This document shows positions 3,165 through 58,018 of a stretch of DNA of 64,000 nucleotides, piece after piece; the stretch's first letter is position 1, and the number at the start of each line of letters is the position of its first letter. The notes below the pieces were generated by a model, which was given only the letters and a program-made list of their open reading frames with translations, did no database searches and was not told where the DNA came from. Both the position numbers and the translations under genes were made by a program. Source of the DNA: a virus (Duplodnaviria > Caudoviricetes); IMG/VR virus record IMGVR_UViG_3300035501_000922; one strand, 5' to 3'.

Positions 3165-3176
3165 AACATATACATA
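3165..3176 (+). promoter_or_regulatory. Late-type promoter AACA-N6-TA
   Basis: aaca-tataca-ta upstream of the ORF at 3216. Confidence 0.7.
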
Positions 3177-3215
3177 AAAATGATATAAAATATATCAAGA
3201 AAGGTTGTGTTTTAT

Positions 3216-3446
3216 ATGGCAAATAATTACATTGGTTCCACAAAGTACGTTGACTCAGCAGACAAGCTTACATCTGATTTTGGTTTTAATGGTGATATTG
3301 CATTTGTTGTTGAAACTTCCGAAGATGATGAAAAGTCTATTACTGGTCAGTACACCAAGTATGATGGAGAGTGGATTTCTGTTTCTGGAGCATCTGCTTC
3401 ATCTAGTACAACTCCACTTGACAATGTTGATGATGAAGACGTTTAA
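3216..3446 (+). CDS. Small acidic hypothetical protein
   Basis: RBS gaaagg, ATG at 3216, preceded by the promoter motif and followed by a terminator (~3454-3490). Confidence 0.65.
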   Translation: MANNYIGSTKYVDSADKLTSDFGFNGDIAFVVETSEDDEKSITGQYTKYDGEWISVSGASASSSTTPLDNVDDEDV

Positions 3447-3529
3447 AATTAATAAAGAAGAAGAATAGATGTACTATTCTTCTTCTTTTTATATAATAAA
3501 ATATTATTATAGTAACTTTATTCTAATGA

Positions 3530-3842: not shown

Positions 3843-3845
3843 TAA

Positions 3846-4027
3846 GCTAGATGACATAGAGTAGGATTGGATGTTCGGAAGGCGCACCAAAGATCCTTAC
3901 AAACATCTAGCAAGTCTTCCTGTTAGAGCCGATGGGCACTGACCCGAGCGTAGAGAAGCCGGTAGTTCAGTTATGTTTCATCGGCATTATGTCTCAGTGA
4001 CTGGTTCAAGTCCAGTCTGAGAAGCCA
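3846..4027 (+). ncRNA. Unclassified structured RNA: two hairpins plus a 3' tRNA minihelix ending in GCCA
   Basis: Hairpins gctagatg/catctagc (3846-3911) and gccgatg/catcggc (3928-3985), then gtctcag-tg-actgg-ttcaagt-ccagt-ctgagaa-g-cca (3991-4027). GC-rich relative to its flanks. Confidence 0.65.
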
Positions 4028-4041
4028 TTCATTTTTTAAAT

Positions 4042-4078
4042 GGGGGCTTGTTGATATATTGCATATCAACAAGCCCCC
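4042..4078 (+). terminator. Intrinsic terminator
   Basis: gggggcttgttgatat...atatcaacaagccccc stem. Confidence 0.7.
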
Positions 4079-4114
4079 AACTTATTTATTTTATTATATA
4101 CAATATGTTAATTT

Positions 4115-4242: not shown

Positions 4243-4254
4243 AACAATTCTTTA
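4243..4254 (+). promoter_or_regulatory. Late-type promoter AACA-N6-TA
   Basis: aaca-attctt-ta upstream of the CHAP lysin. Confidence 0.7.
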
Positions 4255-4272: not shown

Positions 4273-4974
4273 ATGGCTACTATTACATATGATAAATTTG
4301 TAAAAAATCACTTAGGCAAAGGTGTTGATTATGACTCGGTAGCAGGTGTACAGTGTGTCGACCTAGCTAAAGCATACCTTGATGAAGTATTTGGCATTAA
4401 ACCTGGTGCATGGGGTGATGCTTATTGTTATTATGATAATTTTAATAATCATAAGGAATTAGTTGCTAACTTTACAAGAATTGCTAATACCTCATCACTT
4501 GTCCCTAAAAAAGGTGATATTTGTGTGTGGAAATCAACTCTTAGTTCTGCAGGTCATGGTCACATTGCTATTGCAACAGGTGAAGGTGATACTACATATT
4601 TTTATAGTTATGACCAAAACTGGACGGGTAAGCATGACCCATGTACCAAAATTAAGCACAATTATAATCAATTTGCAGGTGTTCTTAGACCAAAAGACCA
4701 GACTAAGATTACAGGCGTTAAAACAACTGAAACAAAATCATTAGACACTACCGGTTTTAAAAAAGGCGATAAATCAGTTGGTGTATTAGCTCTTAAAAGA
4801 TTACTTCTTATTGCTAAAGCTAAAAAACTGATTTCCGTAACAGTTGATGATACTACTTCATTTGGTAGTGGAACTGAAAAAGCAGTAAATGCTCTCCTCT
4901 CAAAATGGGGATATAAAGAAACTGGTATTGCCGGTGAGAAGTTTATTAATAAACTCTATGAAAAGATTAAATAA
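4273..4974 (+). CDS. Endolysin: CHAP domain plus C-terminal peptidoglycan-binding-like domain
   Basis: GVQCVDL (Cys), GHGHIAIA (His) and DQNW motifs; C-terminus nearly identical to that of the GH25 lysin at 28842..29774. Confidence 0.88.
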   Translation: MATITYDKFVKNHLGKGVDYDSVAGVQCVDLAKAYLDEVFGIKPGAWGDAYCYYDNFNNHKELVANFTRIANTSSLVPKKGDICVWKSTLSSAGHGHIAIATGEGDTTYFYSYDQNWTGKHDPCTKIKHNYNQFAGVLRPKDQTKITGVKTTETKSLDTTGFKKGDKSVGVLALKRLLLIAKAKKLISVTVDDTTSFGSGTEKAVNALLSKWGYKETGIAGEKFINKLYEKIK

Positions 4975-4996: not shown

Positions 4997-5008
4997 AACA
5001 AATTGATA
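4997..5008 (+). promoter_or_regulatory. Late-type promoter AACA-N6-TA
   Basis: aaca-aattga-ta upstream of tRNA-CAT. Confidence 0.6.
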
Positions 5009-5106: not shown

Positions 5107-5183
5107 GGGACATTAGCTCAGTTGGTTAGAGCTTCCGGCTCATAACCGGATGGCCCTGGGTTCGAGTCCCCGATGTCCCACCA
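5107..5183 (+). tRNA. tRNA-CAT (probably Ile2; elongator Met not excluded)
   Basis: Acceptor gggacat/atgtccc; anticodon arm tccgg-ctcataa-ccgga; CCA. The body resembles Bacillota Ile2, and there is no initiator C1-A72 mismatch. Confidence 0.9.
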
Positions 5184-5256: not shown

Positions 5257-5268
5257 AACATTACTATA
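5257..5268 (+). promoter_or_regulatory. Late-type promoter AACA-N6-TA
   Basis: aaca-ttacta-ta upstream of 5303. Confidence 0.7.
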
Positions 5269-5302: not shown

Positions 5303-5584
5303 ATGCTTACAGGAATTATTGATTCTATCAGAAAAGAAAGAGCAACATTCTTACATGAAGTTAATTTTATCCGTGAAATGGCAAATGAAGATGTTATCGC
5401 TAATCAAGTTGATAAAGCAGAATCTCAGTATGTAAGAGAGACCACAGATGAACTCATTGAAGCTAAAGAAATGGTTGATGAGATGCCGTCTGATACTACA
5501 CAGGATGATGCTGAAATAAATAAAATCATGGAAGCGACTGAAGATATGTCTTTCGATGAAATGATAGGTCTTATTAATGATTAA
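5303..5584 (+). CDS. Small acidic hypothetical protein
   Basis: RBS gaaagga, promoter motif, and downstream terminator (~5589-5633). Confidence 0.7.
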   Translation: MLTGIIDSIRKERATFLHEVNFIREMANEDVIANQVDKAESQYVRETTDELIEAKEMVDEMPSDTTQDDAEINKIMEATEDMSFDEMIGLIND

Positions 5585-5913: not shown

Positions 5914-6636
5914 ATGGAAAAAACAATAAAAATCAAAGCTGACGAATCATCAAAATATTATATTTATAAAAAAGACTATGATGATTCAAAAACTTTAACA
6001 CGTGAAAATATGTTAAGAGCTACTTGTCCAACATTTGAAAAAGTCCCGTTTGAGCAATTCCTTAAAGACTGGAAGAACCTTTACGGAGATGATAAATCTG
6101 ACTTTGAAGATGTTGATGAAAACGTTGTTAAAGATATTTATGATAAAATTCAAATTCCTAAACGTAGTACAAAGGGTTCAGCAGGATATGATTTTACATT
6201 TCCAGTAGGATTTACATTACCTTGTGCACATAGTATTGTAATCCCAACTGGTATTAGATGTAGAATGCCTGTAAATTGTGTATTGCTTATTGTACCTAGA
6301 AGTGGCTTAGGTTTCAAATATAGAATATCCGTAATGAACACTGTAGGTGTAATTGATTCTGATTATTACAATGCAAAAAACTATGGTCACATCATGATTA
6401 AAATTGTTTACGACGGTGATGATTTTAATACTCTCTTGGAAACAGAATATGATCATGGACTTATGTTGAAATGTAATAATAGGGAAAAACAAACTGATAC
6501 ACAGCTTAGTTTTGAGCCTGATAAAGGTTTTGCTCAAGGTATATTTACAGAGTACATGATAACATCTAATGAGTTATTGTCTGAAGAAACATTAGATGAA
6601 AGAACTGGTGGATTTGGTTCTACTGATAATAAATAA
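5914..6636 (+). CDS. dut: Trimeric dUTPase
   Basis: Motifs SAGYD, PRSGLG, GVIDSDY, AQGIF and C-terminal RTGGFGST. Confidence 0.95.
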   Translation: MEKTIKIKADESSKYYIYKKDYDDSKTLTRENMLRATCPTFEKVPFEQFLKDWKNLYGDDKSDFEDVDENVVKDIYDKIQIPKRSTKGSAGYDFTFPVGFTLPCAHSIVIPTGIRCRMPVNCVLLIVPRSGLGFKYRISVMNTVGVIDSDYYNAKNYGHIMIKIVYDGDDFNTLLETEYDHGLMLKCNNREKQTDTQLSFEPDKGFAQGIFTEYMITSNELLSEETLDERTGGFGSTDNK

Positions 6637-6693: not shown

Positions 6694-6705
6694 AACAATT
6701 TACTA
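6694..6705 (+). promoter_or_regulatory. Late-type promoter AACA-N6-TA
   Basis: aaca-atttac-ta upstream of 6730. Confidence 0.7.
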
Positions 6706-6729: not shown

Positions 6730-7500
6730 ATGGAGAACTTATTTTATGAAGAAGCTTTTGTTTTTGAAACTTCGGAGTCTATCTACAGTAGTAGGCTGGA
6801 TAGTTATATATTAGAATATACAGAAGCTTATAATAAAAAACACTATATAACTGAAAGCGAACACAAGTCATTACTTGTTAAAATAAAAGAATTCTTTACA
6901 AATATCATTACATCATTAAAAACTTTTCATACGAGTATAATAACTAAATTACGTAGTTTTGCAAGAGAGAATACTATTGAAATAAAATTACGTAGTTTAA
7001 GAAAAGAACTTAATGAAAAGAAAGATAATGGGCAAAAATATATCAAAACAATTGATTTAGTGAAGTATGAAAAAACATATATAAAAATGGTTGATAGTTT
7101 GTGGGAATATGCACAGAAATTTGAAAAGGTTGACTATAGAACAGTAGACCAAATTGATAGAGACCTTGCTAAGTTTAATTCATTATATGAAAAATATAAT
7201 ACTGAACTTGATGAAATAGCAAAAAAAGAATATACTATGAAAATTACAGATGCAATAAACTTTGTTTCTAAAGAGATAGATGGTAGGTCTAAAGTAATTG
7301 AGACTATAAATCAATCTATTAATAAAGTTAAAGAAATGAAAACAAGTGCTGAGAACTTAGAGTTGAAAAGAAATACATTAGGAAGTGATGTCATTCCTAA
7401 ACATGTATTCTTTTTAAAAAGAATGTGTAACTCAATAACTGCATTTATCAGAAAAGCAGTTAGTAAGTTCATTACAGTAGTAGTATTTCTATTTGCATAA
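6730..7500 (+). CDS. Putative internal head/virion protein (acidic leader, ES-type sites)
   Basis: RBS aggggtg; acidic N-terminus with ITES followed by the KIKEFFTNII amphipathic helix, as in the 13.7-24.5 kb family. Confidence 0.55.
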   Translation: MENLFYEEAFVFETSESIYSSRLDSYILEYTEAYNKKHYITESEHKSLLVKIKEFFTNIITSLKTFHTSIITKLRSFARENTIEIKLRSLRKELNEKKDNGQKYIKTIDLVKYEKTYIKMVDSLWEYAQKFEKVDYRTVDQIDRDLAKFNSLYEKYNTELDEIAKKEYTMKITDAINFVSKEIDGRSKVIETINQSINKVKEMKTSAENLELKRNTLGSDVIPKHVFFLKRMCNSITAFIRKAVSKFITVVVFLFA

Positions 7501-7548: not shown

Positions 7549-7560
7549 TTATATATTATT
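7549..7560 (+). promoter_or_regulatory. Early-type promoter TTATATATTATT
   Basis: One of six copies, each upstream of a non-structural gene; resembles the phiKZ early consensus TATATTAC. Confidence 0.6.
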
Positions 7561-7657: not shown

Positions 7658-7918
7658 ATGAGATTTTGGATTGTACGTACACGAACAATCGACATGAAAG
7701 CTTTGTACTTCCCATTTATTAGCGAGAAGAAAGCTAAGAACTTTGCTAAGCGTCAAGGCACACATGCAATAGAAATGTGTACAACAGACAAAGATTGGTA
7801 TACCAATCTCGGTAAGTGGATTCTGACGCTCGATAATGTAAATGTGTTGAGCTTCCATGATACCCTTTCTGTTTATGCATTGACAAAAACAGAATATACA
7901 AACAATTTAACAGCTTAA
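7658..7918 (+). CDS. Hypothetical protein (early)
   Basis: RBS gaggtg; early motif upstream. Confidence 0.65.
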   Translation: MRFWIVRTRTIDMKALYFPFISEKKAKNFAKRQGTHAIEMCTTDKDWYTNLGKWILTLDNVNVLSFHDTLSVYALTKTEYTNNLTA

Positions 7919-9339: not shown

Positions 9340-10227
9340 ATGAGTAAGAAAAACAGAAAGAAAATCATGAACAGAAGACTTGCTGCAATTTTGGCTTGCA
9401 CAGCCATCATAGCAACATGTAGTAGTGTCGCATCTTTAAAAGATGCTGACATGAATAACAACACCATCAACAACGATGTTGCGTATGGAGAAAACACATC
9501 ATCAGCAACAGGAGTATATGAAACTGCTGCATATACAAGTCCTGCTGTAGATACATATGTAGAAATACCAGCAGAAATACCACAGGTGTCATCATCTGAA
9601 TCCTCTGATTCAGATAGCTCAGTAGACAGTTCGTCTGCTGATACATACGGGTTACCTGAGGAAATCATTCCCGAGTCCGAATCAAATGCTACTAAAGCGG
9701 TTGATGAAGTTAATGATGATACATCCGAAGAATCTGAAGAATCCGAAGAATCCGTTTCGGTGTTGGATGGTACCGTCACGTATACACCTTCATGGTGGTC
9801 TGATACACGTATGTCCTACATGGACTATACATGTATAACCGACCAGAGCAGCGACCAGTGGAAGTTACAACATTGGTATGCTTATACTGACTTCACTACA
9901 GGTATAAGAATGGTAAATGGTCGATACTGTGTAGCAGTTGGTTCACAGTATACCACTACCAAAGGACAGTATCTTGATGTCGTTCTTGAGAACGGCACTA
10001 GGATACCATGTATTCTCGCTGACTGTAAAGCTGACCAAGACACTCTTGATGGTCTTGGAAGAATCGGAGCAGATGGGGGGATTGTGGAGTTCGTAGTAGA
10101 TACCCCATATCTTCCTTATATGGTCAGACAGATGGGCTCTAATGAATACCAGTTCGACTCGGACTGGCAGAGCCCTGTGGATTACATTGTTGTTTATGAC
10201 AACGGTGTGAATATCGGAGGAAATTAA
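9340..10227 (+). CDS. Exported/anchored protein with an acidic linker and a C-terminal 3D/double-psi-barrel-like cell-wall domain
   Basis: RBS ggagg; basic N-terminus plus hydrophobic segment; Ser/Asp/Glu linker; RYCVAVGS...ILADCKAD...IVEFVVD C-terminus. Confidence 0.55.
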   Translation: MSKKNRKKIMNRRLAAILACTAIIATCSSVASLKDADMNNNTINNDVAYGENTSSATGVYETAAYTSPAVDTYVEIPAEIPQVSSSESSDSDSSVDSSSADTYGLPEEIIPESESNATKAVDEVNDDTSEESEESEESVSVLDGTVTYTPSWWSDTRMSYMDYTCITDQSSDQWKLQHWYAYTDFTTGIRMVNGRYCVAVGSQYTTTKGQYLDVVLENGTRIPCILADCKADQDTLDGLGRIGADGGIVEFVVDTPYLPYMVRQMGSNEYQFDSDWQSPVDYIVVYDNGVNIGGN

Positions 10228-10421: not shown

Positions 10422-11126
10422 ATGGCTAATGAAATTATTACAAGGAGTGGAATTACTCCTAACGAGAATGGATTGCCTTTCACGGTGACAACCGCCGATG
10501 TCGAAAATTATCTTCAGGGAAAGATTGACGTCATCACTAACGAGATTGCACGTGCGACAGGCGAGAATTTACCTCACGTAGACATTAAGGTCTACACAAC
10601 AGAAGCGGGAAGAAACTTCCTGCCGTTTATGATTGTTCTTCCGTTATCAGTTTTGGAGGATAATCATAAAAAGAAGAAGAATAACGATGAGCTTCCGATG
10701 TTTAATCCTGAGACAGAATGCGGAGCAGCGAAACTTCAGCGTCCGTATTTCAATATGATTAAGGCTTATGGATACAGTGATGACGATATCAAAGCTTTTT
10801 CATCTGGAGATTGGAAACGTGCAAGAGGTGTAGCAAGCAGCACGATACCTATTCTTAAGAGTGTTAGCAGACCGAAGATTAATACAATTAATGGAAATCT
10901 TCAGATGGTAACTGTTATGCTTGATCCTCTGAGAGTCTTTCACGATATGCTCGTAATGCAGGGAGATAATAATCGTGATTTCCGCATTGAAATTAGCGGA
11001 TGGCAGAAGATTAGAACGGGCGAGTTCCGTTTTGACATTAAGCGTATGACTTACAGAAAGAAGAATAATAAGAAGTATCAGGAAACTTTCGTTGATGAAC
11101 TCAACAGAAAGATGAGAGGCCGCTAA
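10422..11126 (+). CDS. Hypothetical protein (early)
   Basis: RBS gaaaggag; higher GC than neighbours; terminator at ~11153-11188. Confidence 0.75.
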   Translation: MANEIITRSGITPNENGLPFTVTTADVENYLQGKIDVITNEIARATGENLPHVDIKVYTTEAGRNFLPFMIVLPLSVLEDNHKKKKNNDELPMFNPETECGAAKLQRPYFNMIKAYGYSDDDIKAFSSGDWKRARGVASSTIPILKSVSRPKINTINGNLQMVTVMLDPLRVFHDMLVMQGDNNRDFRIEISGWQKIRTGEFRFDIKRMTYRKKNNKKYQETFVDELNRKMRGR

Positions 11127-17947: not shown

Positions 17948-17959
17948 TAATAAATTGTT
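17948..17959 (-). promoter_or_regulatory. Late-type promoter AACA-N6-TA
   Basis: aaca-atttat-ta on the minus strand upstream of 17922. Confidence 0.7.
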
Positions 17960-22155: not shown

Positions 22156-22962
22156 TTACTTTTTTTGAAATTTAGACATTTTTGAAAAAAATTTAGTTCC
22201 ACTGTTTGCTGATTTTGATACCAATTTTTGCATTGTTCCAAGAATTTGAGATATCTGCCTTTCCGCATCGGCGGCTAAATTGGATAATGCAAGTTTTTTA
22301 GGACTATCCGCATATTTTTTTTCTCTTTCATGTAATTTTTTTTTATATCTTTCTTCTTTATTATCCTTAATGACTTTTTTTCTTAGCTCATTGCCAGTTG
22401 TTTCAACGATATTAAAATTATCTTCTATGCTTTTTTGTATCTCCTTACCAATAACAAGCGATGCACCTGCCTTGATTACAGCCCCACCATATTTATTTAC
22501 TATTTTAGCACACCTATCTACAAATGCAGCAATTAAGTGATCATCTATATGTGTGCCTTTGGATACTAGTTGTATCATTTTTCTTCCTTTGAGAAGTTCC
22601 TCATGTATTTCAGCATTAATTTTCCTTGTATCTTCGTCAAATCTAATAATTGCATTAGAACTTTGAAAATACTCTTCCGCTGTAATATTTTCACGAAAGC
22701 CGAAAGTATCTCTAACTGCTGTAATGAAATTTGTAACCACTCTTTTTGTGGCTTGTACAATTCTATTAATTAAATCGAGGAATTTATTTCCAGATGTTTT
22801 TTCTGCACCTTTAACTACCTCTTCGTCAGCTTCAGTAAAAATAGATAAAGATAATATTGCAGATTCATTACAAAAATCATGTACTGCTCTGTCTATATCT
22901 AAATCCGTTTCTGCATACATTATATATGCCTCTCTTTCAAATGGTGTAGCAAAACTCTGCAT
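22156..22962 (-). CDS. Putative internal head/virion protein
   Basis: Acidic leader with NES/TEA, then the KFLDLINRIV helix. Confidence 0.55.
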   Translation of the reverse strand: MQSFATPFEREAYIMYAETDLDIDRAVHDFCNESAILSLSIFTEADEEVVKGAEKTSGNKFLDLINRIVQATKRVVTNFITAVRDTFGFRENITAEEYFQSSNAIIRFDEDTRKINAEIHEELLKGRKMIQLVSKGTHIDDHLIAAFVDRCAKIVNKYGGAVIKAGASLVIGKEIQKSIEDNFNIVETTGNELRKKVIKDNKEERYKKKLHEREKKYADSPKKLALSNLAADAERQISQILGTMQKLVSKSANSGTKFFSKMSKFQKK

Positions 22963-23002: not shown

Positions 23003-23014
23003 TATAGTTATGTT
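23003..23014 (-). promoter_or_regulatory. Late-type promoter AACA-N6-TA
   Basis: aaca-taacta-ta upstream of 22962. Confidence 0.7.
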
Positions 23015-26881: not shown

Positions 26882-26893
26882 TAATAATATGTT
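26882..26893 (-). promoter_or_regulatory. Late-type promoter AACA-N6-TA
   Basis: aaca-tattat-ta upstream of 26833. Confidence 0.7.
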
Positions 26894-26953: not shown

Positions 26954-27331
26954 ATGCCAACAGTAATAGTTGTTTTAGTATGTATTTTAGTTTTATCTTG
27001 TATTGCTTTATTTTGGGTAGTATTTTTCCAAGGTGCTAACGAAAGAGAAATTATAAAAACTGAGAGAATAACAGACTTAGTTTATGTTGCTAATGTAAGA
27101 CGTGAAAAAATTGCAAATAGTGACAAGTATATGCATTACACCAGAGTTGAATATAAAAATGCCATGTATACACTAAAAGGTATTGTTAATTATAATATTG
27201 CGTATAGACGCCAGTTAAGGAATGTGCATGCATTAATTGATAAAACCGTGTATAGTGATGGAATTGTTGAGTATCAAGTAGTTAAATTACTTCTTATTGA
27301 AGTTACGAAATCACAGGAGGTTAAAAAATGA
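26954..27331 (+). CDS. Small membrane-anchored protein
   Basis: N-terminal hydrophobic helix; overlaps the thyA start (ATGA). Confidence 0.65.
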   Translation: MPTVIVVLVCILVLSCIALFWVVFFQGANEREIIKTERITDLVYVANVRREKIANSDKYMHYTRVEYKNAMYTLKGIVNYNIAYRRQLRNVHALIDKTVYSDGIVEYQVVKLLLIEVTKSQEVKK

Positions 27332-28185
27332 GCTATGCAGACAAATTATTTGTTAATATGTGTAATGATATATTAACAAATGGTACAACGACAGAAGGTC
27401 AAGCTATACGTCCACATTGGGAAGATGGAACACCTGCTTATACAATAAAGAAGTTTGGTGTTGTGAATCGTTATGATTTACGAAAAGAATTTCCTGCAAT
27501 TACATTAAGACGTACTGCTATTAAAAGTGCCGTTGATGAAATCCTTTGGATTTATCAGAGAAAATCTAATAACGTCCATGATTTAAGATCTCATATATGG
27601 GATGAATGGGCTGATGAAAATGGTTCAATTGGTAAAGCATATGGTTATCAAGTTGGCTTAAAAAACATATACAGAAAAATTGATAACGAATTTACATATG
27701 TTGACCAGATGGAATCTGTATTGTATGATTTACAAAATGCTCCATTTGGAAGAAGAATCATGACGAATCTTATGAATTTTAATGATTTACATGAAATGAA
27801 TCTTCAACCGTGTGCATGGTCATGTACATTCAATGTTACAAGTGAAGATGGTAACTTAGTTTTAAACATGATTCTCAATCAAAGGTCGCAAGATGTTCTT
27901 GCGGCTAACAACTGGAATGTTGTACAGTATGCAGCATTATTAATGATGGTAGCACAAGTTTCTAAGATGATTCCCGGAGAACTTGTACATGTTATTGCTG
28001 ATGCGCATATATACGACAGACATGTACCATTAATAAAAGAACTAATTGGTAGACCTCAGTATAAAGCACCAACTGTTTTAATTGATACTGGGGTACAAAA
28101 CTTTAATGACTTCACCCCGGAGTCATTTTTAGTTACTAATTATGAATATGGTGAGCAACTTGAAAATATTCCAATTGCAATTTGA
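27328..28185 (+). CDS. thyA: Thymidylate synthase
   Basis: IWDEWAD, GKAYG, RR, LQPC (catalytic Cys), QRSQD, WNVVQY (dUMP-specifying Asn) and HIYDRH. Confidence 0.96.
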   Translation: MSYADKLFVNMCNDILTNGTTTEGQAIRPHWEDGTPAYTIKKFGVVNRYDLRKEFPAITLRRTAIKSAVDEILWIYQRKSNNVHDLRSHIWDEWADENGSIGKAYGYQVGLKNIYRKIDNEFTYVDQMESVLYDLQNAPFGRRIMTNLMNFNDLHEMNLQPCAWSCTFNVTSEDGNLVLNMILNQRSQDVLAANNWNVVQYAALLMMVAQVSKMIPGELVHVIADAHIYDRHVPLIKELIGRPQYKAPTVLIDTGVQNFNDFTPESFLVTNYEYGEQLENIPIAI

Positions 28186-28200: not shown

Positions 28201-28797
28201 ATGAAATTAATTGCTTGTGTAGATTTAGACTTTAATATAGGTTATCAGAATCAGTTACTGTTTCATATACCAGAAGATATGAAACGATTTCGTGATTATA
28301 CAAATGGAAATATAGTTGTTATGGGTGGTAAGACATTTGAAAGTATTGGTCATCCTTTAAAGAATAGAACCAATATAATCATTTCTCATGAACCATCCAA
28401 ATATCAATTAGATGTAATTAATGATGTAATGCCCATGACAATGGAAACTTTCATTAATGAATATTATTTTTCTCGCTCTTCATTTACAAAAGAAAAAATA
28501 TATGTAATTGGTGGTGCTGAGATTTATAATTCATTATTACCAATGTGTGATACTCTTATATTAACTAGGGTAAATACAGTTGCAGAAAACACAGATAGTT
28601 ATATTAAGAATCTGGTTTACGACTATGGTACTGATATATCTAGCTCTAATATGAAGTTAACATACCATGATTCTGATAAAACCATTGCGTATGAATTAAT
28701 AGAATCAGAACTAGGTAGATACTCTATTGATGCTAATGAATATTATGATTTTCTTACGTATAAACTAATGGATTATAACATAAAAGATGCAAATTAA
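28201..28797 (+). CDS. folA: Dihydrofolate reductase
   Basis: IGYQNQL...PEDMKRF, VVMGGKTFESI, PLKNRTNII and IGGAEIY motifs. Confidence 0.93.
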   Translation: MKLIACVDLDFNIGYQNQLLFHIPEDMKRFRDYTNGNIVVMGGKTFESIGHPLKNRTNIIISHEPSKYQLDVINDVMPMTMETFINEYYFSRSSFTKEKIYVIGGAEIYNSLLPMCDTLILTRVNTVAENTDSYIKNLVYDYGTDISSSNMKLTYHDSDKTIAYELIESELGRYSIDANEYYDFLTYKLMDYNIKDAN

Positions 28798-29982: not shown

Positions 29983-29994
29983 TATTTCTATGTT
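29983..29994 (-). promoter_or_regulatory. Late-type promoter AACA-N6-TA
   Basis: aaca-tagaaa-ta. Confidence 0.7.
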
Positions 29995-30311: not shown

Positions 30312-30395
30312 AATTTCCCCTCACTTTCTGTAATAATATATTTAAAATAGAGTTATAAATAATATAGAAATAAAGTCTGGTAATTATTCATAAAA

Positions 30396-30407
30396 AACAA
30401 GTTTATA
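30396..30407 (+). promoter_or_regulatory. Late-type promoter AACA-N6-TA
   Basis: aaca-agttta-ta upstream of 30429. Confidence 0.7.
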
Positions 30408-32065: not shown

Positions 32066-32077
32066 AACAATTCTATA
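32066..32077 (+). promoter_or_regulatory. Late-type promoter AACA-N6-TA
   Basis: aaca-attcta-ta upstream of 32106. Confidence 0.7.
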
Positions 32078-36761: not shown

Positions 36762-36773
36762 AACAATAACATA
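36762..36773 (+). promoter_or_regulatory. Late-type promoter AACA-N6-TA
   Basis: aaca-ataaca-ta upstream of 36805. Confidence 0.7.
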
Positions 36774-37826: not shown

Positions 37827-37838
37827 AACAATGTCATA
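37827..37838 (+). promoter_or_regulatory. Late-type promoter AACA-N6-TA
   Basis: aaca-atgtca-ta upstream of 37884. Confidence 0.65.
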
Positions 37839-44861: not shown

Positions 44862-44873
44862 TATTCATATGTT
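44862..44873 (-). promoter_or_regulatory. Late-type promoter AACA-N6-TA, overlapping the terminator hairpin at 44830-44868
   Basis: aaca-tatgaa-ta. Confidence 0.65.
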
Positions 44874-50800: not shown

Positions 50801-53800
50801 ATTTGAGTGAGAAGGTCAAAGCCAAGTATGCCTACACATACAACCTCATTTACTAAATCGACGATACTACCTACTGTTGTACCTGTGAAACCACCGAGTA
50901 CCGCAGCTATAATTCTCATCTTTCCGTCAACTTTACTTTGAGGTATCTGGAATAGTCTAGCTACTCCACCATCACCTGAGCTATTGATTGCACCTAGTAA
51001 GAATCCGCCACCTTCCATAATAACGGTACCTACACCTAATGTCGCAGCTCCACCAGCTTCTTTTGCTGCAGCTTCAGTAGCACCTTTTTCAATTTTTTTA
51101 GTAGCTTCTTCACCCATGTTTTCAAGACCATCGGTAACACTCTTTTCAACTGCTTTAACGCCCGAGTCTTTACCAACTTTTTTATTAAGTTTTTTACCTA
51201 CTTTTTCAAGTAATTCATCTATCCAACTTTTAATTTTTTCAATTATTTGTTTGACTATTTTACTACCACCCTTAGAAGCACCTTCAGCTCCTTCTTTAGC
51301 GACAGTTTCTGCAGTTTCTTTAGCTGCATCTTTACCGAGGGTTGCAGCAGTGCTTTCTGCAGTGTCTTTAGCAACAGTTTCGGCCGTATCTTTAACAATG
51401 GTTGCGCCAGCGTCTTCTACCCCATTTTTAGCAACAGTTTCAGCTGTGTCCTTAGCTATAGTTGCGCCAGCGTCTTCTACCCCTTCTTTAGCGACAGTTT
51501 CAGCCGTTTCTTTGGCTGTATCTTTAACAATGGTTGCACCTGCATCCTCTACACCATCTTTAGCAACAGTTTCAGCTGTATCTTTGGCAGTATCTTTAAC
51601 AATGGTCGCACCAGCATCTTCCACTCCATCTTTAGCAACAGTTTCGGCTGTGTCCTTAGCAGTTTCTTCAGCTGTTTCTTTAGCGACATTTTCAGCCGTA
51701 TCTTTTGCAGCCTCTTCAACTCCTTCTTTTGCGGCATCTCCAGCTATGGTTGCAGCAGCATCTTCAGCCCCTTCTTCAGCAACTGTTTCAGCAGTGTTTT
51801 TACCAAATACATCAGTTATAGGTGTATTCCACCAATCTTGGGCAGCTTTTACTTGACTGCCAAACTCAGTACCGTAAAATGCATTTTTAGCATTTGTAAC
51901 TAAATTGCTATTTGCTATTGCATTTAATCCTTTACTTGCTGCATTTACTCCAGCTTCAGCTCCTGTGCCGGCAACTTTTAAAGTTGTTCCTGCTACTTTG
52001 GTTGTCATAAAAGGTAATTTTGAAAGAACCTTACCAGTAGTTTTTGCAACTTTAGGTATACCTTTTACGAGTGTTTTTGTTGTTGCTTTAACTGCGTTAG
52101 GATGAAGTAAAAAATTTACTTTAGCAGCGGTTGCATGATCGACTTCTCCATCTTCATTCGTGAGGTATGTTTCTGCAGCTTCTAACGGATGACCTGTAGC
52201 AAGATCTTCTATAGCATTAGCATCATTAGTTACCTCTGCAACAGCATTATCAAGATTTGAGCGGTTATCCTTATTCGTAGATTTATTTTCAGTAAAGCTA
52301 TTGACAACCCCTGCAATTTTATTAACGAGCGTACCCACACCCTCTGCAATACTCAGTAAAGCATTCGTTACAGACGGCCAATCAATAGTATTAAAAAGAG
52401 TGGCAGAAACTGGGGCTAAGGCAGAAGCTATTGTTGCAACATTAGATACTGTTGTCTTAATTAGCTTATACGTTTCACCAAATGTACTATTCTCTAATTT
52501 TTCATCAATGTTGCTTGCAGTCATTTTAGCCCATTCACCAAATGTACCATTTTTCAGAGCATTAAATCCCTCACCTACTGTTGTCGCAACTTTCTTAACA
52601 ATACTTATTGTATTTGAAAAATGATCAGACACAAGCCATTTCATTGCTTTGGTAACAAACGGTACTGCAGCCAAAAGACCTACAGTTATTAATCCCTTTT
52701 TGCTAAAGATTTTACTCCATATGGCATTATGGGATTTAGTCTCATCATATTGTGCTTTCGTATTGTCACGTATTTGAGTGAATAAACTTCTTTCTTTTTC
52801 TTTCTCTTTTTCACGAACCTTGTCAGCTTGCTTAACTCCCTTTTCACGAACCTTAGTTAATGCTGATTTAGCCAGATTAACAGGAGCGGTAACAACTTTA
52901 CCAACAGTGTGAACGGCTGCACCAATGGCACCAGTTATGAGACCACGACCTCCTCCACTGCCACCACGTATGTGTGTACGTCCAACACCTTCACCACCAT
53001 TTTCTTCAGTGTTGTCTTCATCTACAAGAGTTATGCTTTCACCATTTTTTTCATCTTTTTTAGTCTTTTTTGCTGCCAATTTTTCAATCTTTTTATCTTC
53101 TTTTTCTTTTAATTTATCCCGTTTTTTCTTTTTCTTTGTTAATTTTTTATTTCTCCGCCAATGACCTATATCAAAAGAAAACACATCAGATGTAAATGGA
53201 TTAAATTTTTCTGAGTTAGAAAGATAGTTATCTAATGATAGAATACCATGTTTACCATCTGTTAAATCTAACTTTTTGCCAGAAGCTGAAGAAGTAATTT
53301 GACCTTTATTTTTTACAAAGTCATCTGCAAAATCATCAAAACCGTCATAGTCATCAAGCAGTCCTTTGTCTTTTAATTCAAAGAACTTCTTTCTTGCCAT
53401 ACTACGAAGATAAATATCATATGACTCGTTATCTTTTTTCTCACTATCCTTAATCTCATTATCAAGATTAGCATACTTTTCACTTTTTTTAAAAAATTTT
53501 GCTCCAAGACTTAGAATAGCAGCATTTTTATTTTTCTCTTCAGTTTCTTTGTCTTTATAATCTTTCATGCTGTTGAAGTTCTTAGCAGTCCATTGTAAAA
53601 CATCACTGCCATTTTCTTCAACTTCTTTCATAGCGGCTTCTGTATCCCCGCCGTTATTCTCTAGGATTTTTTGGTATTCTTTAAAGGCGTTAGTTTTTTC
53701 TTCATACGAAAAATTATCGCCCTCTTTTTTAAGTTCATCTTTTGTCTTTTCATCACGGGGATCAGTATCATCTTTATCTCCTGTAAGTTGTGCATATATT

Positions 53801-56800
53801 TTACTAGCAATCCAAATGAGTTTACCCTCAGCATTTAAGGTCGAGAAATCCTTCATTTGCTTTACTTGGGCAAAAGTAGTTCCTAATGCAATGGCTCTAC
53901 CTTCAATTTTTTCTTTAGCTTTTTTTGCCATCTGGTCTTCTGTTTCGACCTTGGTATTTAATTTTTTAGCTAAACTAGGTTTTGCTCGTATTGCAGCAGC
54001 TCTTGCCTCAGCAGTATCTGATGAATACTGTCCTTTAGTTGCTTTTTCTATAATCTTGGCGTTCTTATCTCTTTCTTTTTGATCGTTATGCTCTTTACGA
54101 AGTTTATTTCTCTCGTCTGTTTCAAGCATTTTACGGTATCTCCATCTTTCTGATGGACTCATACCTTCAGTATTAACAGAGTCTAATTGGGAACCATTTA
54201 TTCTAGCAGTTAAATTATTTGCACCATCATATAATTTTGCAACACCCTTACCTGCAAGACCTGCAAGACCTTTTACGCCTTTTCCGAGTAATCTAAGAGG
54301 TGTTAAAGCAGTTTTGACAATTTTCAAAACTCCTTTTGTTATTCCTCTTATACCACGTTTTATTTGGGTTTTAAGCCAATCTTTTCCTATATCTAATGCA
54401 GCCTTTAAGTTTGAATTTTCCCATGTTTCTACTATCTTGGATTTAGCAATATCAAGAACACCCCGAACTAATCTTATAGGAGCTAATACTGCTCCTCTTA
54501 CAGCATGGAATGTTAATGCCGCTATTCCTTTTACAGTATCGGCTACAGGTTCAATAACGTTATCTCTTACGATATCAACAAGAGGATCAACAAGGTTTTC
54601 TTTAATACCAGTACCGATATCATTACATATGCCACCTATATTGTCTCTGATACTAGCGAACACACTGCCAACATGCTCAGATACACTTTCGGTAAGTGCT
54701 GTTATAGTATCTCCAAACTTGTATTCTAAGTCTAAAGATACTGTTTTAAGATAGTATGAAAGTTGAGTTTTCATAGGTCTTAATACATTAGCATTAAGCA
54801 TATTTCCGAAACGTCCAAAAAGACCGTTCTTATGCTTCTTTTTACCATCTTCTTCATAGTCTTCGCCAAATAAGAATTTCTTAAACGATTCACCATTAGC
54901 GGCTATAGAAGCACCAAGACCCATTAAACCACCAAATATAGGTCCACCAGGCATAACAGCCGAAGCCATAACACCACCAAGTATACCTATACCTGACATT
55001 CCAAGAACCTTACCATCTAGTGAAAATTCTTCGCCATTGTTACCTCTAGATGCTTTTTTACTAAATCCATTTTTAATAGCATTAACTAAACCAATTTGAC
55101 CTTTTTCTTCATCACCAAAAAGGAACGCCTTGAATTTATCAGAACGTGTAACAAGTGTAGTTGCTATGCCGAGACCAGCACCAACAATAGGACCACCAAC
55201 TAATGTGCCTAATGCACCTCCGGTTTTTCCTGCTAATGTTGACGTCAAAGCACCTACTGCTCCACCACCAATAATATTCAGTTTATTTTTCTTAATATAA
55301 TCCTGAGTACCTCTACTTAAGAATCCTCCATATCTTTCTCCAGTTTCGTCATCCTTTTTACCAAACAACCAATCCTGGAGCTTTCCACTTCTAGTAAGGA
55401 TACTTGTAGCAATACCCATGGCAGCACCACCAATAGGACCTCCAACAAGAGTACCTAAAACACTACCGCCAGCCATTACTCCAACACCAGCACCAATAGC
55501 TCCACCAACAGTGGCATCCTTGGTGTATGTACTAAATTTCTTTTGAATTTTCTCAGAAACTTCCTTAGAGCTTTGACCCTCAATGGATTCTCCTAAAAAT
55601 GCTTCTTTCCACTTATCTAATCCACCTTTAAGAGATTCAGTGAAACTATTAAAAATTCCACTGCCTTTTCTCTTACCTGTAGGATTACCATCTTCATCAA
55701 CTTCTTCAGGTCCAAATAGTTTGGTCATAATTCCAGCTTTAACAGTACTACCCATATTTTTAAGAGTAGCTAAAACTGAATCATCCTTATCTTCATATTT
55801 ATTACCCTTAGAATCAGTCCATGCTTTTCCAGTTAGATTGTGCTTAATGGAACCTAAAATATCACCCATACCATTTCTAATACCGGAAAGAAGTCCACCT
55901 TCTGAATTACCATTTGCATCTTTTGTACCAAGTAATACAATTTTTAACGGAGAAATAACTTTGTCTCGCAAAGTATCACCAATTGCAGTAGCTTGTTCTG
56001 TAAAGATTTTAGTAAATTCCGTCATGGCTTCTTGGGTATTGCCGTGCATTATTGATGTCATCATGCCATTTGTATGCTTAGCACCCGAAGAAAGCATTTT
56101 ACTGAGCAGACCACTTGATTCAAAATCTTGACTTTCCCCTGTAAATTCTTCTCTTTTTCGTCTTTTATCAATACCTTTAAACTTCTTATTATTCTCTTTA
56201 CCATAACCCATTTCTTTTGATAATTCAGCATAAATGTTTTCTATATTATCAAGACCTGAGTTTTGTAGATTATAATAACTAGCATTTTTTTCATAATCTT
56301 TCAATTTATCAGTTGCAGCTTGCTGCGTGCTTAAAATAGCAGCAGTTAAGCTGTATGCTGATGAAGGATTATTCTTTACTAATTTTTGAAGAGCATCATT
56401 AATATGGTCTGCATTTTTTCTGCTTCCCTTATTGTATGATATACTCTCTAATATTTTTTGTAATTCACCATCACTTGAAGTATCTGCAACATTAACATGC
56501 TTCTGTGATTGTGTTAACTGCATTACAAATTCTTCAATAGTGTGACGTAATGATTCTTGATTCTCCTTAGTCGATTCATTTTCAACTAATGTTTTTAATG
56601 ATTTACCGATTTCTGATGAATCAAAACTATCCATAATAGTATTACGGAAGTCATTAAGAATTCCACCACGTAAATCAGCTTGCTTTACGTACTTATTTTG
56701 ATTATAATCAAAAATATCAGCATCAGCTTTTGCTTTTTGGGTATCAATCTTATAATGGTCAGCAATTGCTTTTAAATAAGAAGTCTGCTCTCGTAACTCC

Positions 56801-57966
56801 TTAGTAATAACCTGTGTAATAGCATGTTTGGTTTCACCATCAAAAGGAATTGCACCTTTTTCAATCTTAGCAGAATGAATAGATGTTTTTCTTTCTGAAC
56901 GTAAACCAAAATTTTTACCAATAAATTTTGTAATAGTACCTGCCAGGCCAGCACTATATTTATCTCCCTCATCAGCCAACCTATTAAGCATTGTGGGAAC
57001 AAAATTAGAGAAAGTCTTTTCAACAGTATCAATTGTTGAGCCAAATACTTTGGTTACCAATCCCTTAGTTAGTTCTGCTGTAACCATACCTAGAGGATTA
57101 CTTGCTATCATGTCAAGCATACTCTCATCGAGGTCGAGCATGCCTAGGCTATCCTTTATTTGTTGATTTACATAGTTTTTATATTGAGCTAAGTTAATAC
57201 CACCGTTTTTAGTATTAAAAGTACCGGCGGCTGTAGTCCTATCAGAACCATATATATCGGTGTTATTACCGCTTTGACCCATACGGTCATAATAGGCCAT
57301 ACTTGCTTCAATGTACTTGGTCATATTATCATTTTGATATTGAACCAAAGCACTTAAATTGTTATTAATATTGGATAAGTGACCTGTTATTTCAGAGCCT
57401 AACTTCTCCATTTGATACAGACCTGCTGCACTAACAGAAATAAATGCATCCATTGATGCTTTATTTGTTTTAAGGATATTCTCAGACTGTTTCTTTATAT
57501 TGGAAGAAAGATTTAAGACAGCGTCACGAGTTCCACTGTCTACTTGAACGTTATAGTTGTTATTAGTAAGACTAACGTCTTCGTCTTCATCACCGAATGA
57601 AACATCACCCGATGAATCTGACCAGAAGTCATCATTTCCATCTCCAAAATCAAACATTCTGTCGGTATTATTAAAATTACCTTCTTTTAAATCACTTAAA
57701 GCATTTTTATATGCTTTTGCAGCGAATGCTCCGTATTTAGATTGCTTTAATGTATCAGCAACCTTACCAACTGTAGCCTTTCCACTTTTTAAAGAGGAAA
57801 GAATATTTTTAGAAGTTTTCGCAGATGTGCTTACAACTTCTGATAAATTGGGGTATATTTGTTTTAACGATTCTTGTGTTGATGCACCAATGCTCTTCAT
57901 GGCGTTGTCTATCCATTTAGATTTGGTGTTTAATGTTTTTTCAAATGTAGATTTAGAAATAGCCAT
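44890..57966 (-). CDS. Giant tape-measure-like tail protein with C39-like peptidase, CHAP, SGNH hydrolase, NlpC/P60-like amidase and phage tail lysozyme domains
   Basis: 4358 aa. Gly-rich hydrophobic segments; YYSQND...GCGPTAM...GHYVV...DP (~48475-48980); GQCTWY...GHVMFVE...EAN (~48020-48400); GDSRT...GVND...DGLH (~47240-47755); DCTGFVS...HGEIY (~46185-46680); AGIMGNIQQES...GLIQWT...YER (~45495-45940). Confidence 0.85.
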   Translation of the reverse strand: MAISKSTFEKTLNTKSKWIDNAMKSIGASTQESLKQIYPNLSEVVSTSAKTSKNILSSLKSGKATVGKVADTLKQSKYGAFAAKAYKNALSDLKEGNFNNTDRMFDFGDGNDDFWSDSSGDVSFGDEDEDVSLTNNNYNVQVDSGTRDAVLNLSSNIKKQSENILKTNKASMDAFISVSAAGLYQMEKLGSEITGHLSNINNNLSALVQYQNDNMTKYIEASMAYYDRMGQSGNNTDIYGSDRTTAAGTFNTKNGGINLAQYKNYVNQQIKDSLGMLDLDESMLDMIASNPLGMVTAELTKGLVTKVFGSTIDTVEKTFSNFVPTMLNRLADEGDKYSAGLAGTITKFIGKNFGLRSERKTSIHSAKIEKGAIPFDGETKHAITQVITKELREQTSYLKAIADHYKIDTQKAKADADIFDYNQNKYVKQADLRGGILNDFRNTIMDSFDSSEIGKSLKTLVENESTKENQESLRHTIEEFVMQLTQSQKHVNVADTSSDGELQKILESISYNKGSRKNADHINDALQKLVKNNPSSAYSLTAAILSTQQAATDKLKDYEKNASYYNLQNSGLDNIENIYAELSKEMGYGKENNKKFKGIDKRRKREEFTGESQDFESSGLLSKMLSSGAKHTNGMMTSIMHGNTQEAMTEFTKIFTEQATAIGDTLRDKVISPLKIVLLGTKDANGNSEGGLLSGIRNGMGDILGSIKHNLTGKAWTDSKGNKYEDKDDSVLATLKNMGSTVKAGIMTKLFGPEEVDEDGNPTGKRKGSGIFNSFTESLKGGLDKWKEAFLGESIEGQSSKEVSEKIQKKFSTYTKDATVGGAIGAGVGVMAGGSVLGTLVGGPIGGAAMGIATSILTRSGKLQDWLFGKKDDETGERYGGFLSRGTQDYIKKNKLNIIGGGAVGALTSTLAGKTGGALGTLVGGPIVGAGLGIATTLVTRSDKFKAFLFGDEEKGQIGLVNAIKNGFSKKASRGNNGEEFSLDGKVLGMSGIGILGGVMASAVMPGGPIFGGLMGLGASIAANGESFKKFLFGEDYEEDGKKKHKNGLFGRFGNMLNANVLRPMKTQLSYYLKTVSLDLEYKFGDTITALTESVSEHVGSVFASIRDNIGGICNDIGTGIKENLVDPLVDIVRDNVIEPVADTVKGIAALTFHAVRGAVLAPIRLVRGVLDIAKSKIVETWENSNLKAALDIGKDWLKTQIKRGIRGITKGVLKIVKTALTPLRLLGKGVKGLAGLAGKGVAKLYDGANNLTARINGSQLDSVNTEGMSPSERWRYRKMLETDERNKLRKEHNDQKERDKNAKIIEKATKGQYSSDTAEARAAAIRAKPSLAKKLNTKVETEDQMAKKAKEKIEGRAIALGTTFAQVKQMKDFSTLNAEGKLIWIASKIYAQLTGDKDDTDPRDEKTKDELKKEGDNFSYEEKTNAFKEYQKILENNGGDTEAAMKEVEENGSDVLQWTAKNFNSMKDYKDKETEEKNKNAAILSLGAKFFKKSEKYANLDNEIKDSEKKDNESYDIYLRSMARKKFFELKDKGLLDDYDGFDDFADDFVKNKGQITSSASGKKLDLTDGKHGILSLDNYLSNSEKFNPFTSDVFSFDIGHWRRNKKLTKKKKKRDKLKEKEDKKIEKLAAKKTKKDEKNGESITLVDEDNTEENGGEGVGRTHIRGGSGGGRGLITGAIGAAVHTVGKVVTAPVNLAKSALTKVREKGVKQADKVREKEKEKERSLFTQIRDNTKAQYDETKSHNAIWSKIFSKKGLITVGLLAAVPFVTKAMKWLVSDHFSNTISIVKKVATTVGEGFNALKNGTFGEWAKMTASNIDEKLENSTFGETYKLIKTTVSNVATIASALAPVSATLFNTIDWPSVTNALLSIAEGVGTLVNKIAGVVNSFTENKSTNKDNRSNLDNAVAEVTNDANAIEDLATGHPLEAAETYLTNEDGEVDHATAAKVNFLLHPNAVKATTKTLVKGIPKVAKTTGKVLSKLPFMTTKVAGTTLKVAGTGAEAGVNAASKGLNAIANSNLVTNAKNAFYGTEFGSQVKAAQDWWNTPITDVFGKNTAETVAEEGAEDAAATIAGDAAKEGVEEAAKDTAENVAKETAEETAKDTAETVAKDGVEDAGATIVKDTAKDTAETVAKDGVEDAGATIVKDTAKETAETVAKEGVEDAGATIAKDTAETVAKNGVEDAGATIVKDTAETVAKDTAESTAATLGKDAAKETAETVAKEGAEGASKGGSKIVKQIIEKIKSWIDELLEKVGKKLNKKVGKDSGVKAVEKSVTDGLENMGEEATKKIEKGATEAAAKEAGGAATLGVGTVIMEGGGFLLGAINSSGDGGVARLFQIPQSKVDGKMRIIAAVLGGFTGTTVGSIVDLVNEVVCVGILGFDLLTQIACAIYNIVAKDKDVDKLQDAQIEWKGEYEEYRQGEIEDAYETAVKNGEIDGNEVSLADYIDGVNDGTYTVKYDSFADWNDDQNKTVGAQIADAYDNLIDKGGDLIAAGVDKAKQFGKNVKNTFSSMADKGGDLIAAGVDKAKNAGKKLKNGATKLFNKGKNGLKKLGKGAKNLFNKGKDKVKDTAKKVKNGAKNFIKDPLGSTKKLFNKAKDKVKDTTKKVKNVAKKAAKFLTTKKETAWYDTDGSYYVANGKSFDHYNANGSKIDEDVDADEIQERITAGELEEGTATVKNKIGTIASAIGDKAKNIFSSVKEKASGVFTKLSKLSDTKWGKLASKVASPLTSVIKSLTSKKEKAWYDTDGSYYVANGSGFDHYNATGDLIEENVDSETITEQINSGNLTEGEAVVNSSSLKEGLNNIKDKLSNAWSTGVSKAKDLYKNMKSKVSSVFKSIQENGIIGSIKKLVSSSSQEAWFDANGNYYVKNGKKFDYYNANNDLIEKGIDADEVQEKITTGLLTKGKIQKDSAAKNAVDKIKKSVKESWDKAKSTVSAGWTKFTKWITGGSGDGHTVDDFDTDDYGEPSIMGGSGMGFRRLRSPHGGRGADTVNGFSYYSQNDSDWKNSAYGNDGATMGDTGCGPTAMSMVASQMTGQNVTPTETASLAQMTGDRDSTGTNWNFIDKASAAYGINSTEQFNPSGEYIQSQLEQGKPMILSGASGTGGFGSGDTPYTPAGHYVVATGIDNNGNIDISDPRGKSYSKKFNVDDVASQTGAAWSFGQGGGFGSALESKLGTRLANFDSDAYKSPINQLSEGQCTWYAEGRAYEKCGWEGITDRPRGNGGEIYSKATKDGYDTGTSLKANSLVSLGSSSQYGHVMFVEDVDTDNNKVYYTEANNPANNVVDSDDGKLKVQSIDDWNNKRSIHGYVYCGDSTSSDDSTYDTSTNTVVDSSSDSSSSSSTNSILSGLSSLMGEIGNRFVNGAFTGNYDSDYSSYISSLHNSSSSSSSSTSDTSSTDNSGKKIVMIGDSRTVGMCSAMGGPYIQQTGYIGTKDNVTYIAKEGSGFDWLSETAYNLAKKYVDSNTVVLMWHGVNDVNNADKYAKFVKTEMTKLGAKIYYISVGPCNKNYTSSNSGIEKFNKSLKDALPSDVGWVDVYSYIKDGFTKNEMGTSDGLHYNDTTYKSIMSKIMSTIGASTTVSTGGGSGSGRPSILSRAKSFISNATKGQNGGFGLGRIRRGGGFGSKPLIRGGFGESTDGTIQRTSNGGYTYTSDFFGWPTKYKNSWENSKTQTEVENDITNAEYKHVLNHSTVNDKNQGIYKSPYDKYKAQTITYKATTTADDTTDSGMKHKKQILSKIRKVLKTYDTVKTTDDSSGSDSPAGWIECVQKVKQLFSEQLLAAGYTTDNAYKQENFTFDFGDKGKRGFRRDCTGFVSACLWYYGAVPDDDMPTGGYSSHNFGGSSSSQTLIDDLANAGFTRMTFPGWDKLNQGDILIKHNAHGEIYSSGDSAASHQSWNCGCDEGLLATDTVGGANYAYEEIWRPPNSAATGNSETTTGTATAGGILTGVTSLMGEIGNRLVNGAFTGNYDTDYESYIASLKSSTSSSDSSSDDSSSDGTTTNGTDVQAQVWNALIKKGYSSAATAGIMGNIQQESAFNPAVYSNDGGGGLIQWTPWKTKIGAYSEKLGKGIDGWKNNVSMQMDYLDSTIDAENWAFKQNPSKRWNAPNTTVDEFKKATNPVTAAKQFEAGYERSNMNYTNMPKRTKYAQAFYDTYSSTDSTKMSELVTQYVAEGMDISDAVIAARKKLNGDDGGSGTGRKIISGGRGTGAKISKQRTLAPVQCGPHEGGGGRGDDEQSTTYSTSSSTNADNVVKDYKSSLKASSVTSANQIDSTLIANIISLLKDIANNTLDSSDKLDYLKSIDINGDSVTNNTFVTSNNNNNSKNSTSSSSGSNTLQHTESRNEKLAKRIAAGI
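51290..51800 (-). repeat. Degenerate AETVAK(D/E)GVEDAGATI(V/A)KDT repeats in the giant tail protein
   Basis: Visible in both the translation and the DNA. Confidence 0.8.
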
Positions 57967-58006
57967 TTAACTGACTCACTCCTTTCCTCATACAAGAGGT
58001 TATCGT

Positions 58007-58018
58007 TAAAAGATTGTT
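58007..58018 (-). promoter_or_regulatory. Late-type promoter AACA-N6-TA
   Basis: aaca-atcttt-ta upstream of 57966. Confidence 0.7.

Follow-up and report, generated by a model that had tools for sequence, protein, structure and literature searches.

The fifteen AACA-N6-TA sites of the window (the whole stretch of 64,000 nt that was analysed) are probably late promoters of the Bacillus phage AR9 type, in a phage that would have thymine in its DNA and a thymine-accepting specificity subunit of the non-virion RNAP (nvRNAP). The nvRNAP of AR9 is the textbook example of promoter reading in the template strand with a requirement for deoxyuridine (dU), and uracil has been proposed as the way in which AR9 tells its own DNA from that of the host. 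The AR9 late promoter was described as AACA-(6N)-TA/G, the last base being the start site (PMC5312081), and the nvRNAP of this dU-phage needs deoxyuridine at the template positions -11 and -10 (PMC9209446). In the searchable literature, the AACA-N6-TA promoter and close orthologs of the specificity subunit gp226 are treated as features of phages with dU genomes, and a thymidylate-synthase-positive clade having this promoter was not found described there.

The window and its kinship with AR9

The window has a G+C content of 31-39% and contains six tRNA genes, two endolysin genes, several virion structural genes and the gene for a tail protein of 4358 residues. Megablast with the window gave no close DNA match among the deposited phages, and its virion proteins share 22-27% identity with their counterparts in AR9, PBS1 and BpSp (Bacillus), LPJP1 (Listeria) and AH12 (Staphylococcus). 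The distant relationship to AR9/PBS1 is borne out by a beta gene of the virion RNAP that is orthologous to AR9 gp189 and split by two group I introns; AR9 gp189 is likewise intron-split and joined from six pieces. As a whole, the source phage is best, and with good probability, explained as an uncultured gut or rumen jumbo phage that is distant kin of AR9. The genomes of relatives were fetched from IMG/VR, among them the complete relative G001 (250 kb), about 76% identical to the window in a virion protein. Six AR9-type genomes (AR9, BpSp, LPJP1, AH12, G026 and G027) were compared, and the counts for the family of the window refer to near-complete genomes.

The left flank of the window consists of the block of NrdD, NrdG and a gene of 1020 residues, which in the relatives stands downstream of the gp226 ortholog. 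In the phage of the window, NrdD (the anaerobic ribonucleotide reductase) is broken into three pieces, whereas the relatives have it in one, and extra genes, one of them with HTH-like repeats, separate nrdD from the place where gp226 is expected (L016, which is the left flank, and L056, L058); this region probably harbours mobile introns or homing endonucleases. Between the tRNA-Leu and tRNA-Gln genes there is a G+C-rich segment of 272 nt (3843-4114, +), with no ORF and no Rfam match.

Table 1. Coordinates of the promoter-type motifs and of the genes and introns discussed in the text
Feature	Position	Strand	Context
AACA-N6-TA	3165..3176	+	40 nt before small ORF 3216-3446
AACA-N6-TA	4243..4254	+	after terminator hairpin; 19 nt before endolysin gene 4273-4974
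AACA-N6-TA, promoter-like	4997..5008	+	99 nt before tRNA-Met 5107-5183; weaker, without full upstream A run
AACA-N6-TA	5257..5268	+	before gene 5303-5584; kept before G001 ortholog
AACA-N6-TA	6694..6705	+	before gene 6730-7500; kept in G001
AACA-N6-TA	17948..17959	-	before operon starting at 17922 (16420-17922); kept in G001
AACA-N6-TA	23003..23014	-	before gene 22156-22962
AACA-N6-TA	26882..26893	-	before virion structural protein gene 25544-26833; kept in G001
AACA-N6-TA	29983..29994	-	before small gene 29778-29957 and GH25 endolysin 28842-29774
AACA-N6-TA	30396..30407	+	before gene 30429-31712
AACA-N6-TA	32066..32077	+	before virion/tail-tube-like gene 32106-33272
AACA-N6-TA	36762..36773	+	before gene 36805-37761; kept in G001
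AACA-N6-TA	37827..37838	+	before gene 37884-39488; kept in G001
AACA-N6-TA	44862..44873	-	before virion structural gene 43296-44798; kept in G001
AACA-N6-TA	58007..58018	-	before 4358-aa tail protein gene 44890-57966; kept in G001
Variant GACA-N6-TAA	5876..5887	+	27 nt before dUTPase gene
Variant GACA-N6-TAA	12346..12357	+	18 nt before gene 12375-13649
Variant CACA-N6-TAA	26919..26930	+	24 nt before 26954 / ThyA / DHFR operon
Early-type core ATATATTAT within TTATATATTATT	7551..7559	+	before gene 7658-7918
Further ATATATTAT core	9259	+	
Further ATATATTAT core	10353	+	
Further ATATATTAT core	59068-59076	-	
Further ATATATTAT core	30333-30341	-	
Trimeric dUTPase	5914..6636	+	all five motifs; N-terminal extension and one insertion
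ThyA	27328..28185	+	catalytic Cys, Arg-Ser-x-Asp, dUMP-specifying Asn and Asp-x-His-x-Tyr intact
DHFR	28201..28797	+	directly downstream of ThyA
Virion RNAP beta-like gene, AR9 gp189 ortholog	59665..64000	-	two exons in span; runs off window
Group I introns in virion RNAP beta gene	~59397-59701, ~60704-61012	-	Rfam 70.9 and 88 bits

Placement and enrichment of the AACA-N6-TA sites

The sequence-only reading had listed fifteen coordinates, and an exact AACA-N6-TA stands at each of them on the strand given there (Table 1). All the sites are located in intergenic gaps in the sense orientation, 19-64 nt before start codons and, in one case, 99 nt before tRNA-Met, often with a terminator hairpin directly on their 5' side; the genes that follow include virion structural genes, the giant tail protein gene and two endolysin units, their late class being assigned from the gene type. 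The first-position variants claimed for the window are likewise present, with GACA before dut and the 12375 gene and CACA or TACA before tRNAs, and further ones precede the ThyA operon (CACA) and an SbcD-like gene. An additional match at 59382 (-) sits on a group I intron edge and was ruled out as a promoter.

Counted across all 64,000 nt, the motif falls short of the number expected by chance (52 observed versus 87 +/- 9 in dinucleotide shuffles), a deficit due to the depletion of copies within genes (codon-shuffle null, z = -2.2 sense and -3.0 antisense), as they are also in AR9 and G001. This shortage was considered as a refutation of the promoter reading and rejected, since it comes from intragenic avoidance and the upstream class is strongly enriched. 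Thus, 15 sites, or 16 with the intron-edge match, fall in 4,976 strand-bases of sense-upstream intergenic sequence, as against none in 4,506 strand-bases of the other intergenic strand and 36 in 118,518 strand-bases of the genic strand (Fisher tests for the sense-upstream class, p = 9e-10 and 8e-5). The enrichment over background, a point on which the sequence-only reading had made its own proposal depend, is found in the upstream set, where the 15-16 observed sites compare with a Markov-1 expectation of 3.8 and with no more than 10 in any of 2000 simulations. The window, AR9 and the relatives all went through one identical pipeline with a crude ORF caller, and the density of the motif per kb in the sense-upstream, other intergenic and genic classes amounts to 3.22, 0 and 0.30 in the window, 2.31, 0.30 and 0.42 in AR9, and 2.05, 0.43 and 0.32 in G001, and the N5, N7 and scrambled-tetramer controls are flat in all three. 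An enrichment like that of AR9 was found in four of five further genomes of relatives, the superclade members G004 (24-fold), G011 (7-fold) and G027 (7-fold) being among the genomes enriched and the distant member G022 (2.3-fold only) the exception. As a separate observation, G022 (IMGVR_UViG_3300031555_003590, 292 kb; ThyX- and dUTPase-positive) has strong early-type cores, 48 of them upstream, despite its weak AACA-N6-TA, and its late promoter may have diverged.

The comparison of the window with G001 gave a footprint of the same elements: AACA and TA are kept in 8/8 orthologous upstream regions, with divergent N6 spacers and flanks (12 ortholog pairs were available, of which the eight with cleanly mapped starts were used and the other four left out). 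The motif behaves like the AR9 late promoter, as had been claimed, in its N6 spacing, in its upstream placement and in the enrichment that the same pipeline finds in AR9; it shares with AR9/PBS1 the AACA at -11 to -8, the N6 and the TA at -1/+1 in a core of about 10 bits before late genes (PMC5312081, PMC9209446, PMC7598289). The sites of the window are, accordingly, very probably real promoters of the AR9 type. A different upstream signal, for instance a promoter of the host polymerase, a leader element or a site at which RNA is processed, is very unlikely to account for them: such a signal would be compatible with a motif that is short and AT-rich, but not readily with the exact AR9 spacing (strictly N6), the strict orientation with no match in the other intergenic strand, the frequent position directly after terminator hairpins, the depletion inside genes on both strands, and the conservation of the motif across genomes with nvRNAP and gp226, including AR9, where it is the experimentally mapped late promoter.

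A second recurrent upstream element of the window is TTATATATTATT, and its core ATATATTAT is common to the AR9 early promoter consensus, AAATATATATTAT (PMC5312081). The core is strictly sense-upstream in AR9 (34 vs 0) and in the window (5 vs 0), the relatives being alike, and it precedes the gp226 ortholog in G001, as in AR9. Two genes, 9340-10227 and 10422-11126 (+), have an early-type core (9259; 10353) followed by a TACA-N6-TA variant (9308; 10388), and in this they resemble the continuously expressed class of AR9, which has both promoter types. In the scheme proposed for the AR9-type promoters, an injected virion RNAP would read the early promoters with the ATATATTAT core, and a phage-made nvRNAP with a gp226-type sigma-like subunit would read (A/n)ACA-N6-TA some 20-60 nt upstream of the late genes for virion, tail and lysis, with transcription presumably starting at the final A.

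Thymidylate genes and the base of the phage DNA

The dUTPase, ThyA and DHFR that had been read from the translations of the window are all present in it according to PHROGs, Pfam, NCBIfam and PDB alignments, with intact catalytic motifs. The ThyA is closest to that of B. subtilis (E = 2e-55) and passes the equivalog cut-off of the thymidylate synthase model TIGR03284. An assignment of the dUTPase as a dCTP deaminase was rejected, as the protein matches dut models only and has all five dUTPase motifs. The ThyA-DHFR operon is headed by a gene of 125 residues (26954-27331, +), which has no family match and overlaps the ThyA start codon.

The same genes set the window apart from the AR9-type phages. 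ThyA was found in none of the six AR9-type genomes and in 11 of the 21 genomes of the window's family, six more of which encode ThyX, non-homologous to ThyA and absent from the AR9-type genomes (0/3), which brings thymidylate synthase to 17/21; dUTPase is encoded in 18/21 and in 0/6, respectively, and DHFR, present in G001 and the window, in 0/4 of the AR9-type genomes. In reverse, a gp151-type 5'(3')-deoxyribonucleotidase beside the DNA polymerase gene occurs in five of the six AR9-type genomes, in 0/9 of the family and with no match in the window. The dCMP deaminase belongs to both groups (4/4 AR9-type genomes and G001). Two complete family members, G018 and G023, have neither thymidylate synthase nor dUTPase. 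Ugi was dropped as a marker of uracil-DNA, being detectable in AR9 and BpSp alone and undetectable even in the AR9-type LPJP1 and AH12, hence its absence from G001 is uninformative.

The swapping of ThyA for the non-homologous ThyX within one family argues for selection on dTMP synthesis itself. Judged by its gene content, the phage of the window most likely carries thymine in its DNA, and a wholesale substitution by dU appears improbable. The route to dTMP would lead from the dCMP deaminase (found in the relatives) through dUTPase, ThyA and DHFR, dUTP being destroyed on the way. The promoters might be real and of the AR9 type and the DNA nevertheless fully or largely of uracil, with ThyA, DHFR and dUTPase kept for early-phase nucleotide housekeeping or for control of the host pool. 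The dCMP deaminase, which makes dUMP and is common to the clade and the dU phages, would fit such an arrangement, but a dUTPase with all five motifs would remove the very dUTP needed for dU-DNA, the marker genes are reciprocal in 6 vs 21 genomes, the AR9-type deoxyribonucleotidase is missing from the nine family genomes searched for it, and the replacement of ThyA by ThyX points to dTMP selection; a uracil genome is therefore unlikely. Still less probable is a modified thymine or a 5-substituted uracil, made via the ThyA-like enzyme and read by the specificity subunit. The homologs of ThyA do include dUMP and dCMP hydroxymethylases, yet the enzyme of the window groups with B. subtilis ThyA, passes TIGR03284 and keeps the dUMP-specifying Asn, its adjoining DHFR is needed only in the reductive methylation cycle, and other family members use ThyX.

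The gp226-type subunit and the promoter grammar

The gp226 homolog, which the sequence-only reading had set out to be located, was found in the relatives, and no gp226 gene was found within the 64,000-nt window, the properties expected of this phage's own copy being read from relatives about 76% identical to the window in a virion protein. The relatives carry orthologs of the nvRNAP core subunits betaN, betaC, beta'N and beta'C, as well as gp226, gp227 and GroEL, in the order GroEL - gp227 - gp226 that is also the AR9 arrangement. On G001 the gp226 ortholog lies at 79.3-81.0 kb, betaN near 92.6-94.4 kb, betaC near 68.6-70.3 kb and the parts of beta' near 38-40 kb and 145-146 kb. Profile-profile alignment (hhalign) of gp226 is full-length over 454 columns with a probability of 98.3%, and a profile of 20 clade sequences has a single PDB sequence match, AR9 gp226 itself (7S01_A, E = 9e-22). 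The AF2 model of a clade ortholog (L026:1417-3156; pLDDT 75.8) gave as its only significant Foldseek matches 7S01_A (E = 5e-14), 7UM0_A and then phiKZ gp68; its N-terminal domain gives a TM of 0.70, and the low global TM of 0.38-0.47 is due to a different arrangement of the domains. By profile and modelled fold, the clade gene is a gp226 ortholog. The family comprises 355 gp226 homologs, many of them on gut and rumen contigs of 220-290 kb. One metagenomic contig (BNJU01003341.1, 266 kb) has two gp226-type genes (L135 and L140, 53% and 35% identical to that of G001), and this phage may have two specificity subunits. The clade model also contains a beta-rich insertion of about 60-80 residues (residues ~211-268) just before the pocket-forming helix, which AR9 lacks.

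From AR9-type promoters in a genome where dU substitution is unlikely it follows that the subunit reading them would accept thymine. In AR9 gp226, V206 blocks the thymine methyl at -10, and V206G admits T; Val206 was reported as absolutely conserved in dU-phages (PMC9209446). Y210 of AR9 stacks on -9G. Val was confirmed at this position in AR9, BpSp, LPJP1 and AH12. The comparison of the uracil pocket that had been suggested could be made in the relatives, and V206 is unconserved among the clade orthologs: the equivalent residue in 120 clade sequences is P (49), K (29), L (23), I (7) or T (5), complete family genomes have M, I, V, A, K, R, T or S there, and Val still occupies this position in the ThyA- and dUTPase-positive genomes G004-G007 and G010. 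The Y210 equivalent is an almost invariant Gln, hence the V206/Y210 pair of the 2.1bis helix, invariant in the dU-phage subgroup, is not what the clade has. The register at 206 rests on the gap-free anchors D204/N and D217/D and is the same in two profile methods, on which grounds the other register (V206 aligned to Ser) was rejected; a replacement of V206 by a small residue was also considered and rejected, the position being variable and mostly bulky. In betaN of the clade R363, which stacks on the -10 base, is conserved, and K375 is aligned to Ser. Since the residue at 206 is usually bulky and remains Val in some ThyA- and dUTPase-positive genomes, the steric rule of AR9 fails to explain the thymine tolerance, and the constraint on V206 is, as far as the alignments tell, relaxed in the family of the window without simple shrinkage. 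A uracil genome would be suited by a 206 equivalent that is usually beta-branched or bulky (Val in the same five genomes), by the conserved R363 and by the -10 A, which is invariant as in AR9; a modified base could be matched by the variable residue at 206, if it means a pocket of a different shape. Among the AR9-type genomes themselves, G027 (IMGVR_UViG_3300032030_000005, 306 kb) has Lys instead of Val at gp226 position 206 (L202); it lacks thymidylate synthase and dUTPase, carries the deoxyribonucleotidase and uses a strict AACA-N6-TA with 69 upstream sites.

In favour of the thymine-accepting subunit, the grammar of the promoter has shifted at the position where the AR9 enzyme has no room for a thymine methyl. 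The information content of the core is equal in AR9 and the clade (about 9.8 bits), and conserved A's at -13, -12 and +2 are specific additions of the clade, as counted by AAAACA-N6-TAA in the upstream, other intergenic and genic classes (34/0/2 in G001 and 12/0/0 in the window versus 4/1/3 in AR9). In the upstream class, the window, G001, G004 and G011 show a 2-5 fold enrichment of the first-position variants (G/C/T-ACA-N6-TA), which is seen neither in AR9 (0.4-0.7x) nor in G027, a genome lacking thymidylate synthase (0.6-1.5x), and variants at -10 and -9 are flat in every genome compared. The strict A at -11 that characterizes AR9 late promoters is not kept in the clade of the window, where NACA serves, and no genome outside the thymidylate-synthase-positive clade shows a relaxed -11 among those compared. 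The -11 uracil of AR9 lies packed on the DNA backbone, where a methyl group has no space (PMC9209446); therefore, what has been relaxed is the one requirement that thymine DNA would be unable to meet if the geometry were that of AR9. The claim that the AR9 promoter code is retained stands for the AACA-N6-TA core and its spacing, but the code is not unchanged, given the relaxed -11 and the added flanking A's. The specificity subunit would have to accept T opposite the conserved A's, and specificity would be added by the A's at -13, -12 and +2, with -11 no longer obligatory.

Set against known systems, the clade shares with AR9/PBS1 the orthologous nvRNAP core and gp226, the GroEL-gp227-gp226 synteny, the ATATATTAT early core and the intron-split virion RNAP beta gene. 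AR9, however, has dU-DNA, whereas the clade has genes for DHFR, dUTPase and either ThyA or ThyX but none for the deoxyribonucleotidase; its promoters differ by the relaxed -11 and the extra A's, and its gp226 ortholog exceeds that of AR9 by about 115 residues and has the beta-rich insertion, an unconstrained V206 position and Gln in place of Y210. The engineered AR9 V206G (PMC9209446), in which one pocket residue opens -10 to thymine, is comparable in that the clade also departs from Val. However, the mutant still needs dU at -11 (PMC9209446), which the clade has relaxed, and in nature it is mostly large residues (P, K, L, I, M, R, T) that stand in for Val, A or S doing so in some cases only and Val itself persisting in some genomes, so that the natural solution must exceed side-chain removal. 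The phage phiKZ likewise has a five-subunit nvRNAP with a gp226/gp68-type subunit on thymine DNA, but its late promoters are TATG at the start site without a -10-like AACA, and it forms a phage nucleus (PMC7618050, PMC8287921); its sequence relatedness to the clade is far lower than that of AR9.

Somewhat favoured is a history in which the AACA-N6-TA code, together with the gp226-type subunit that reads it, predates the divergence of uracil from thymine genomes. A large and widespread gut and rumen lineage would carry a natural thymine-reading form, having dropped the -11 contact and regained specificity by the flanking A-tract, and the uracil dependence would be a lineage-specific refinement rather than the foundation of this way of reading the template strand. 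The late promoters of the AR9-related group are predictable from sequence, which a 2020 review held to be generally not possible. If the reading of the window is true, recognition of the template strand would be a mode independent of uracil, the family would offer the discriminating pocket residue in dozens of natural variants, a structural constraint (no methyl space at -11) would be linked to a change of grammar (relaxed -11 with an A-tract), and these phages would provide a natural case of how a uracil-reading promoter system changed.
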